Source of the DNA: an uncultured bacterium
GTDB lineage: Bacteria > Hydrothermota > UBA3073 > NMUJ01
Direction of reading: 5' to 3'
Assembly (NCBI GenBank): GCA_965612795.1
Contig: CBFDTI010000001.1
Coordinates: 1 to 64,000, forward strand
DNA length: 64,000 nt
Each line of letters opens with the position of its first letter. The stretch's first letter is position 1. This document shows positions 25,606 through 26,115 of the stretch, piece after piece. The notes under the pieces were generated by a model. That model was not told the origin of the DNA. It saw nothing but the letters and a program-made list of their open reading frames with translations, and ran no database searches. Both the position numbers and the translations under genes were made by a program.

Positions 25606-25660
25606 AGCCCAGGACCGGACTCGAACCGGCGACCTTCCCGCCAAGGCGGGATGCTCTACC
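25606..25660 (-). repeat. tRNA-Thr-derived copy (3' part) with anticodon arm replaced by a palindrome
   Basis: GGTAGAGCA-TCCCGCCTTGGCGGGA-AGGTCGCCGGTTCGAGTCCGGTCCTGGGCT; last 30 nt identical to tRNA-Thr 3' end. Confidence 0.95.
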
Positions 25661-25907
25661 GTTTTTGATGGCATATTAGCTCCTTGAATGCTCTACCTCC
25701 CTTGTAACGTTTCAATAAAGTCTCACGACGTCGAGCCTCCCTTAACGTATCGTACTTTTCATAATAAATCAACCTCAACGGGCGCCTTGCTTTCAGTGAT
25801 TTGGTCTTACCGCTGTTGTGCTCTTTTATCCGACGGTTCAAGTTCTTGGTAACCCCAATGTAATATCCATTATCCTTGAGGCTTTGCAGTACATATACAT
25901 AGTACAT
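25656..25907 (-). CDS. small GIY-YIG nuclease (UPF0213/SLX1-like), 83 aa
   Basis: MYYVYVLQS...YYIGVTKNLNRRIKEHNSG...EARRRE..LK; true start at ATG 25907. Confidence 0.92.
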   Translation of the reverse strand: MYYVYVLQSLKDNGYYIGVTKNLNRRIKEHNSGKTKSLKARRPLRLIYYEKYDTLREARRRETLLKRYKGGRAFKELICHQKR

Positions 25908-25916
25908 AAAACATAA

Positions 25917-25989
25917 AGCCCAGGACCGGACTCGAACCGGCGACCTCTTCCTTACCAAGGAAGTGCTCTACCCGCTGAGCTACCTGGGC
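25917..25989 (-). tRNA. tRNA-Thr(GGT), no encoded CCA
   Basis: GCCCAGG/CCTGGGC acceptor stem, anticodon arm CTTCC-TTGGTAA-GGAAG, GGTTCGAGTCC. Confidence 0.96.
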
Positions 25990-25997
25990 ATTTACTA

Positions 25998-26024
25998 AAT
26001 TTACATCAGCTTGTTTTATGTCAA
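25998..26024 (-). promoter_or_regulatory. promoter of tRNA-Thr/GIY-YIG
   Basis: TTGACA-N15-TAAATT, 8 nt before the tRNA. Confidence 0.75.
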
Positions 26025-26054
26025 CAATTTAAATCCACAAGTATTTATTTAATG

Positions 26055-26115
26055 GGACTCGAATCGGCGACCTTCCCGCCAAGGCGGGATGCTCTACCCG
26101 CTGAGCTACCTGGGC
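26055..26115 (-). repeat. tRNA-Thr-derived copy (5' part) with the same palindromic replacement, lacking the 3' acceptor strand
   Basis: first 26 nt identical to tRNA-Thr, then TCCCGCCTTGGCGGGA-AGGTCGCCGATTCGAGTCC. Confidence 0.95.

Follow-up and report, generated by a model that had tools for sequence, protein, structure and literature searches.

Results

The tRNA-Thr locus and its GC-rich hairpin

The DNA analyzed here, referred to as the window, is a stretch of 64,000 nucleotides (nt) from an uncultured bacterium of the Hydrothermota (assembly GCA_965612795.1, contig CBFDTI010000001.1, positions 1 to 64,000 of the forward strand). The element in question is a GC-rich palindrome that occurs beside a tRNA-Thr gene and a small stand-alone gene for a GIY-YIG nuclease. 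All of these features are encoded on the minus strand (Table 1), where the 5'-to-3' order is unit C, unit B, the intact tRNA-Thr(GGT) gene (unit A), the GIY-YIG gene, and fragment D, with C, B, and D being spare copies of the tRNA. The locus is flanked by genes for a DUF498 protein and a uridine kinase family protein.

Table 1. Coordinates of the features at the tRNA-Thr locus of the window
Feature	Position	Strand	Basis
Unit C: decayed leader and tRNA-Thr copy	26187..26262	-	Alignment to unit A
Unit B: leader, tRNA-Thr positions 1-26, hairpin, variable region, and T loop	26055..26155	-	Alignment to unit A
Hairpin copy 1, in unit B	26074..26089	-	Exact match and fold
Leader of intact tRNA-Thr	25990..26029	-	TTGACA box at 26024-26019 by reading; repeat family
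Unit A: intact tRNA-Thr(GGT)	25917..25989	-	ARAGORN; Rfam tRNA, 71.7 bits
Stand-alone GIY-YIG nuclease gene, 83 aa	25656..25907	-	Reading frame; Pfam PF01541
Fragment D: tRNA-Thr copy from D loop (GGTAGAGCA) to 3' end, with the hairpin for the anticodon arm	25606..25660	-	Alignment
Hairpin copy 2, in fragment D	25636..25651	-	Exact match and fold; begins 5 nt past the stop codon of the nuclease gene

The palindrome, TCCCGCCAAGGCGGGA on the plus strand, is present in two exact copies of 16 nt. A third copy was not found in the 64-kb window when up to two mismatches were allowed, and two matches were reached in 0 of 100 dinucleotide shuffles. In the minus-strand alignment, both variant copies have the form GAGCA-(16 nt)-AGGTC, and the intact tRNA-Thr(GGT) has the form GAGCA-(17-nt arm)-AGGTC. 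A first-pass annotation of this DNA had described the replacement of the 17-nt anticodon arm, at exactly its boundaries, by a 16-nt hairpin that keeps the CCTTGG core, and the alignment agrees: the swap boundaries are exact, and CCTTGG is common to hairpin and arm. That annotation had offered two folds for the stem, TCCCGCC/GGCGGGA, and it is the one with 6 bp and a CUUG loop that is predicted, not the one with 7 bp and a TT loop. The folding energy of the hairpin is -9.7 kcal/mol as RNA (versus -5.8 for the native anticodon arm) and -5.9 kcal/mol as DNA (versus -4.3).

Several familiar identities for the hairpin were tried and rejected. An intrinsic terminator does not fit, since the hairpins are followed by AGGTCGCC with no T-run and a scan called no terminator at either site. 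By reading, the arm of another tRNA is also excluded, as this would be a 16-nt arm with a loop of 4 to 6 nt and no U33. The matches to known RNA families in Rfam were intact tRNAs, RNase P RNA, and one Flavo-1 match in a related locus, with none at the hairpins. A dispersed repetitive extragenic palindromic (REP) sequence is not seen in the window, both palindrome copies being at one locus.

The three spare copies differ in what they have kept. Unit B, which has a TTGACA box in its leader at 26150-26145, is identical to unit A at 26/26 positions of the 5' part, 18/19 positions from AGGTC to GAGTCC, and 33/40 positions of the leader; it ends after GAGTCC, with the 3' T-stem and acceptor strand gone. 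In the leader of the intact tRNA, the spacer between the TTGACA box and a TAAATT box is 15 nt by reading. A promoter scan called neither of the TTGACA boxes upstream of A and B, and our claim is limited to a conserved box. Fragment D is without the 5' acceptor and D-stem strand and matches unit A at 30/30 positions from AGGTC to the 3' end. Unit C has lost 21 nt (the 3' D stem and most of the anticodon arm) and ends past the T loop (...GAGTCCC), and its 62 aligned tRNA columns comprise 36 matches, 5 mismatches, and 21 gaps. The GAAGAGG kept across this deletion matches the intact arm type and not the hairpin type. The anticodon arm is therefore absent from all three spare copies by two routes, the hairpin in B and D and deletion in C. 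All breakpoints in the window lie at loop-coding sites: D starts in the D loop, B and C end past the T loop, and the hairpin replaces the anticodon arm.

The two hairpins had been counted as separate copies in the first-pass annotation. Both are indeed present, but they do not appear to be independent, as the B copy (26055-26098) and the D copy (25617-25660) form a 44-nt direct repeat that is 43/44 identical, hairpin included. Most simply, one swap was followed by duplication, or there was gene conversion between copies, either of which would account for the hairpins of B and D better than two swaps. The near identity of the spare copies to unit A, next to leaders that match at 33/40 positions, suggests that the tRNA-like parts and the hairpin have been homogenized or conserved.

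None of C, B, and D is a tRNA or a tRNA mimic. With one strand missing from B and the other from D, no paired acceptor stem and no cloverleaf is possible in either. Neither was called as a tRNA by ARAGORN or Rfam, even at E values up to 10, and their fold z-scores against shuffles are -0.39 (B) and -0.29 (D), compared with -3.95 for the real tRNA. The earlier proposal of an anticodon-less tRNA mimic is thus not supported for these copies.

The GIY-YIG nuclease gene and its protein

The open reading frame (ORF) starts with an ATG 9 nt past the 3' end of tRNA-Thr, and its stop codon is the TAG within the D-loop motif GGTAGAGCA of fragment D. No Shine-Dalgarno sequence is visible before the ATG (25907-25917, minus strand), and a second, out-of-frame ATG lies 8 nt upstream; T-rich starts like that of the window ORF (TTATGTTTTAT) occur also in one of the related loci described below (L015). 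The protein matches PF01541 over residues 1 to 66 (60 bits, against a cutoff of 22.6; E value, 2.7e-16). Pfam finds this catalytic domain only in the 83-amino-acid ORF, with no separate DNA-binding domain, and NCBIfam gives sub-threshold matches only. The relatives run to about 76 to 108 codons from the start of the match to the stop codon, although no search was aimed at longer fused forms. In the PDB, the closest relatives by sequence are the UPF0213 proteins 1zg2 and 1ywl (E values of about 1e-8), with which the nuclease aligns, at the sequence level only, over its YVYVL, YYIG, RRIKEHN, and REARRRE segments. A phage origin was considered and rejected, as only 20 phage records match, all at less than 60% identity.

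Two database proteins, P0001 and P0002, are 95% identical to the window ORF and have N-terminal extensions. The extension of P0001 matches the frame-2 translation of fragment D, including the hairpin (17/18 residues), and is followed by the same short spacer and ORF start, and that of P0002 is the translation of the 3' part of the intact tRNA. In another frame, the end of P0002 (...HQKW) gives the Met-Val-Glu-His start of P0001. Judged from these protein ends only, the pattern suggests that a close relative carries an array of tRNA-Thr, ORF, hairpin copy, and ORF. The hairpin peptide signature was seen in the over-long ORF calls of only 3/59 database homologues (P0001, P0005, and P0057) and lends weak support.

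Related nuclease genes abut tRNA genes

A scan of a genome collection with the nuclease protein confirmed 137 relatives, and the best 80, which come from many phyla and are 44 to 76% identical to the query, were kept. This set leaves out the window's own genome, and its best match, at 76% identity, is truncated; the 78 loci with a complete ORF are the base for the counts that follow. In 39/78 loci, the start of a same-strand tRNA falls within -60 to +100 nt of the ORF end, a number for which our own estimate from tRNA gene density gives a chance expectation of well under one case. Within -700 to +500 nt, an intact same-strand tRNA is present in 45/78 loci. The ORF stop lies inside the tRNA in 27 of the 39 abutting cases, mostly as a TAG at tRNA positions 8 to 10 or as the D-loop TAG, as in the window. 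These ORFs, which are without a stop of their own, end on a TAG or TAA of the downstream tRNA (e.g., L018 at 3227-3249 and L003 at 3242-3252). It is possible that RNase P cleavage at the 5' end of the tRNA would take the stop codon off the mRNA and act as a built-in brake on nuclease expression.

In the usual layout, the same tRNA is found again, in part or at times complete, on the other side of the ORF. These spare copies hold one to three GC-rich perfect palindromes, either as pure insertions at loop positions or as replacements of whole arms. The D loop at 21/22 is the commonest insertion site, and others are positions 9 to 13, the anticodon loop, and the T loop. Three loci (L001, L023, and L039) have the second layout of the window, in which the intact tRNA is followed by the ORF and then by a 3' partial copy with hairpins. 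Tandem arrays of ORFs and hairpin-bearing tRNA copies were seen in L004 (four ORF segments), L015 (three), L023 (four), and L039 (two). The setting of the gene in the window, beside a tRNA gene and with rearranged or amplified tRNA pieces around it, is thus shared by tRNA-linked relatives. Apart from the nuclease, the related loci have no conserved gene in common.

The window contains other GC-rich hairpins, which are located in tRNA-Ser variable arms and in RNase P RNA. The latter, a bacterial class A RNase P RNA at 47306-47646 on the plus strand (Rfam, 255 bits), houses three of them. The genes for tRNA-Ser(TGA) (8550-8636) and tRNA-Ser(GCT) (8638-8727), both on the plus strand, are 1 nt apart, and the variable arm of the former is a CCCCGC-TGTA-GCGGGG hairpin with a superficial likeness to the class-1 hairpins. 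No nuclease gene adjoins this pair; the closest relatives of the nuclease (L001 and L014) directly follow a tRNA-Ser pair. The tRNA-Ser(TGA) genes beside these two nucleases (L001, 2867-2950; L014, 2907-2990) are identical at 84/84 positions and their tRNA-Ser(GCT) genes at 87/88. As L001 and L014 are labeled Lentisphaeria and Neomarinimicrobiota, either the bins are mislabeled or the tRNA genes travel with the cassette.

Hairpins recur in spare tRNA copies of related loci

A GC-rich perfect hairpin with the base CCYG...CRGG lies inside a spare copy of the linked tRNA in 33 of the 45 tRNA-linked loci. This count is the union of two detectors, one with 25 loci and the other with 28; the list of the second includes a few native arms of partial copies, and one false match, an isoacceptor arm in L028, was removed. 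The condition that the first-pass annotation had set for its own refutation, a palindrome unique to this locus and not conserved near homologous nucleases, hence does not hold, since the same kind of hairpin stands beside related GIY-YIG genes in many phyla. The hairpins are confined to redundant copies and were never found in the working, ARAGORN-called tRNA; in L004, full-length tRNA-Pro copies that bear hairpins are still called by ARAGORN. Replacement of arms recurs as well. A tRNA-Asp copy in L020 has a 16-nt TCCCG-N6-CGGGA hairpin (TCCCGACATGTCGGGA) in place of the 17-nt anticodon arm, independently of the window, and this copy has the layout of unit B, being truncated past the T loop and placed upstream of the intact tRNA gene. 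Further replacements are those of 11 nt by 17 nt in L003 and, in the D arm, of 13 nt by 15 nt in L004.

Hairpins of this type are concentrated close to the nuclease genes. GC-rich perfect hairpins occur at 1.47/kb within 200 nt of the ORFs and at 0.26/kb elsewhere in the loci (54 in 36.7 kb versus 95 in 367 kb), a 5.7-fold difference, and hairpins with CCYG arms are 12-fold denser within 300 nt of the ORFs than farther away (57 in 52.3 kb versus 31 in 351.6 kb). The two main classes, (Y)CCCGCC and CCTGCC, are one stem base apart, and rarer classes are CCAGCC, CCCGCT, CCCGAC, TCTGGC, and GACCC. The class of the window hairpin is found also in L001, L003, L004, L006, L012, L015, L019, L020, and L024, among others. 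The hairpin ends are constant, whereas the interiors measure 2 to about 40 nt; tandem pairs are frequent, and the stem interiors vary by family with the partner arm always complementary. One 20-nt CCTGCC palindrome is found in identical form at 17 places in 12 loci (Bacteroidota, Chlorobiota, Omnitrophota, and the candidate phyla radiation [CPR]), mostly in tRNA-Arg copies, at the D-loop site GGATA^G.

Hairpins were also noted in other settings. The exact 20-mer also lies between two genes in L026 (1579-1598), in intergenic DNA that is not tRNA derived and with the closest nuclease gene at 1.4 kb, and in L008, a complete genome, within an array of three repeated tRNA-like 5' fragments (430-720), with the nearest nuclease gene 2.3 kb off. 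In L016 (2847-2925), a tRNA-Met copy that lies upstream of the nuclease gene has four tandem 16-nt hairpin units similar to GACCCTACGGGTCTTC inserted at its D loop. TCTGGC-nnn-GCCAGA represents a third hairpin family, of which two CPR genomes (L053 and L072; e.g., L072 3350-3419) have several copies close to nuclease genes that adjoin tRNA-Cys. In the ORF array of L015 (2000-3339), the tRNA-Asp-like copies have TCCCG...CGGGA hairpins that contain long AT-rich interiors or stand side by side, as though the loops of older hairpins had received further insertions.

Hairpin class and tRNA identity follow the nuclease tree

On the ORF tree, hairpin class requires 18 changes, compared with a mean of 37.2 after shuffling (0/200 shuffles as low), and tRNA identity requires 16, compared with 25.9 (0/300 as low), although both shuffle tests are inflated by relatedness. 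The window ORF falls into a group of 15, of which 14 are associated with the same hairpin class. Inside this group, subclades follow the tRNA (Asp, Ser, or Tyr) and not the phylum. At the level of sequence comparison, hairpin type and tRNA identity track the nuclease tree and not the host phylum, and the unit formed by nuclease gene, target tRNA, and spare tRNA copies is seen to include the hairpin, which appears to be inherited with the nuclease lineage.

Discussion

The data presented here suggest that the hairpin of the tRNA-Thr locus very probably belongs to a nuclease/tRNA cassette system. Going further, the hairpin may be the palindromic module of a selfish tRNA-gene cassette that consists of a small stand-alone GIY-YIG gene and GC-rich stem-loops, a proposal that we consider about evenly balanced between right and wrong. 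Recognition of the hairpin by the nuclease itself is a more tentative part of this proposal, and we lean slightly against it. The identity of hairpin sequences across phyla is far above that of the protein, and something therefore appears to read the hairpin sequence; a folded stem-loop, and not a fixed double-stranded (dimer) site, is favored by loops and interiors of variable length, from 2 to about 25 nt across the stem families, and by arms that stay complementary while differing from family to family. The nuclease is the only conserved candidate for such a reader.

The following course of events is proposed. The nuclease would break tRNA-gene DNA at loop-coding sites, by analogy with the phage enzyme SegB, and repair by recombination would give rise to tandem and partial tRNA copies and to the spread of the cassette. 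The hairpin would work as DNA, folded into a stem-loop or cruciform that the cassette nuclease reads. Spare copies marked in this way would be neither functional tRNAs nor intact targets, nor would they form long uninterrupted repeats through which the cassette is deleted, and gene conversion may copy the marked state into unmarked spare copies. In the window, a hairpin-bearing tRNA-Thr copy would have been duplicated or split into B and D in a segmental rearrangement around the nuclease gene, with C as a third spare copy that lost its arm by deletion. It is also possible, although we doubt it, that nuclease and palindrome form a mobile system in which a structure-selective mini-nuclease cuts tRNA-gene DNA at extruded loops and propagates stem-loops with constant CCYG...CRGG ends and a free interior into loop-coding positions of dispensable tRNA copies, spreading between phyla via the universally conserved parts of tRNA genes. 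Such a system could be likened, with the same doubt, to a GIY-YIG counterpart of REP sequences and their transposases or of integron attC sites.

Part of the evidence would be accounted for if the hairpins were insertions that nothing recognizes and that persist by destroying the cleavage site and by breaking the direct repeats flanking the cassette, so that the spare copy escapes further cutting and recombination does not remove the cassette. The restriction of hairpins to redundant copies, never an ARAGORN-called tRNA, would be expected under this explanation, as would their position 5 to 15 nt from the junction of partial tRNA copy and ORF in both layouts, the lack of identical stretches longer than about 37 nt in full-length spare copies with two or three hairpins (L055, L031, and L066), and the loss of the arm by two routes in the window. 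It leaves unaccounted for why a noncoding palindrome of 20 nt is identical in 12 loci of several phyla whose proteins are only about 45 to 60% identical to the query, why every insert is a perfect hairpin whose base is conserved, and why whole arms are replaced at exact boundaries, and we regard it as unlikely. An element acting in RNA, within a transcript from the tRNA promoter, is more improbable still. Stable RNA hairpins near mRNA ends protect the mRNA, and REP sequences stabilize mRNA. The hairpin could thus protect the nuclease mRNA at its 5' or 3' end, guide processing, or form part of an anticodon-less tRNA mimic, and it is a strong RNA hairpin located at loop positions of the tRNA fold, typically 13 to 32 nt before the ATG (55 and 116 nt in outlying cases) and, in the window, 5 nt past the stop; the tRNA-Pro copies of L004 are moreover full length and called by ARAGORN. 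However, B and D have no acceptor stem and fold no better than shuffles, many spare copies are truncated, the hairpin of B has no adjoining ORF, no Rfam family matches at the hairpins, and a purely structural role in RNA would not keep the 20-mer identical across phyla.

Slightly less probable again are independent elements, akin to REP sequences or to miniature inverted-repeat transposable elements, that are moved by host functions, favor tRNA loop DNA, and lie near the nuclease only because dispensable copies are found there. Constant ends with interiors of 2 to about 40 nt would suit such elements, and so would the exact 20-mers at 1.4 kb (L026) and 2.3 kb (L008) from the nearest nuclease gene. 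Hairpin class nevertheless follows the nuclease clade, CCYG-arm hairpins are enriched 12-fold within 300 nt of the ORFs, the loci share no other conserved gene, and the palindrome occurs at one locus only in the 64-kb window. That the window's two copies stem from one event would also be expected of a local accident or an ordinary signal, such as the decay of a pseudo-tRNA, the anticodon arm of another tRNA, or a terminator; with swaps or insertions of the same kind in 33 other loci, this is very improbable.

Several observations weigh against a cassette with a palindromic module that is read by its nuclease. No nearby tRNA is present in 33/78 loci, a clade of 25 ORFs is without tRNA and the hairpin is lacking in 24 of its members, and no hairpin-bearing copy was detected in 12/45 tRNA-linked loci. 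The ORF tree is weak, being based on 85 columns with only 8/75 inner branches starred, and the palindrome count covers the 64 kb of the window. Since pairing was a requirement of the hairpin detection, the "compensatory" differences between families are partly circular; of the two double substitutions in the 20-mer, only that of L027 clearly moves to a new 6-bp register, and the variant of L068 folds also in the old register via a G-T pair. The 83-amino-acid catalytic domain comes without a DNA-binding domain with which it could find a hairpin or a tRNA gene, and the PDB relatives 1zg2 and 1ywl are structural-genomics entries without an assigned function. For the mere interruption of a copy, a hairpin would not be needed, as any sequence would suffice; for a hairpin that the nuclease recognizes, GIY-YIG enzymes are still not known to insert DNA. 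Finally, the working tRNA copy keeps every native loop yet apparently escapes destruction.

The closest known parallel is SegB, a free-standing GIY-YIG homing endonuclease that is encoded in the tRNA gene cluster of phages T4 and T6, according to the accessible part of one article (PMC2330249). As far as the available portion of another shows, SegB of phage T6 cleaves within tRNA genes and brings about a tandem amplification of tRNA and segB that depends on recombination (PMC13096335). In our own reading, which is not that of the paper, the other strand of the SegB cleavage motif resembles the T-loop consensus. Here, too, a GIY-YIG gene lies among tRNA genes, and the C-B-A units of the window and the arrays in L004, L015, L023, and L039 look like the outcome of SegB action. 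Unlike the 83-amino-acid catalytic domain described here, SegB is larger and has a C-terminal part that is needed for toxicity, as judged from truncation data, and the available portion of that article reports no palindromic insertions in spare tRNA copies (PMC13096335). In addition, the nuclease described here is chromosomal and found in many bacterial phyla, and its phage matches are weak. Of the features of Seg-type free-standing homing endonucleases, it has the tRNA linkage and does not have the DNA-binding domain.

Similar parallels can be drawn to REP sequences and bacterial interspersed mosaic elements, GC-rich palindromes that are tied to a REP-associated tyrosine transposase (RAYT) and whose hairpin is thought to be the enzyme's substrate. 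In both cases, short GC-rich palindromes are linked to one nuclease-type gene. The gene described here, however, is a GIY-YIG gene and not an HUH/Y1 transposase gene, and the hairpins are located in tRNA copies, two in 64 kb at one locus, and not scattered between genes. Of the earlier suggestion that the hairpin is a REP-like recognition mark for the nuclease, the link between hairpin and nuclease has held, with hairpins in 33/45 tRNA-linked loci and a hairpin class that tracks the tree, and the likeness to REP sequences has turned out to be loose, given two copies in 64 kb and a GIY-YIG protein in place of a RAYT. Short GC-rich palindromes are also spread by gene conversion in fungal mitochondria (GC clusters), archaeal tRNA genes have small introns at noncanonical positions in the D, anticodon, and T loops, and integrons form arrays of genes and attC sites that fold into hairpins. 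All three involve different hosts and enzymes. The archaeal inserts are spliced from functional tRNAs, whereas the hairpins described here sit in truncated, nonfunctional copies, and integron cassettes use a tyrosine recombinase, unlike the GIY-YIG protein here. A review, in the part accessible, places YhbQ/YazA, the type to which the solved relatives 1zg2 and 1ywl belong, in the Slx1 family of structure-selective nucleases (PMC7017083), and enzymes of this kind would be expected to prefer branched DNA or stem-loops. A literature search on UPF0213/YhbQ proteins brought up neither a function nor a tRNA linkage nor a hairpin partner.

Taken together, the recurrence of palindromes in broken tRNA copies beside a small GIY-YIG gene suggests a selfish element that has been little described. 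The literature covered, from which subscription journals were largely absent, contained no account of small GIY-YIG genes of bacteria that are accompanied by hairpin-bearing tRNA copies. If the reading proposed here is correct, the very common and so far unexplained annotation of an 80- to 100-amino-acid "GIY-YIG nuclease family protein" would gain a biology, namely that of a selfish cassette that colonizes tRNA genes of Bacteroidota, CPR/Patescibacteria, Omnitrophota, Planctomycetota, and other phyla. Such a cassette would ride on tRNA promoters, often borrow the stop codon of the tRNA, and leave behind broken, palindrome-filled tRNA arrays, which would account for pseudo-tRNA fragments that confuse annotation. 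It would also extend the principle of phage SegB, a nuclease that reshapes tRNA clusters, to bacterial chromosomes, and it would provide a compact pair of nuclease and hairpin, perhaps structure or sequence specific, with which the question of how a nuclease without a DNA-binding domain locates tRNA genes becomes testable.

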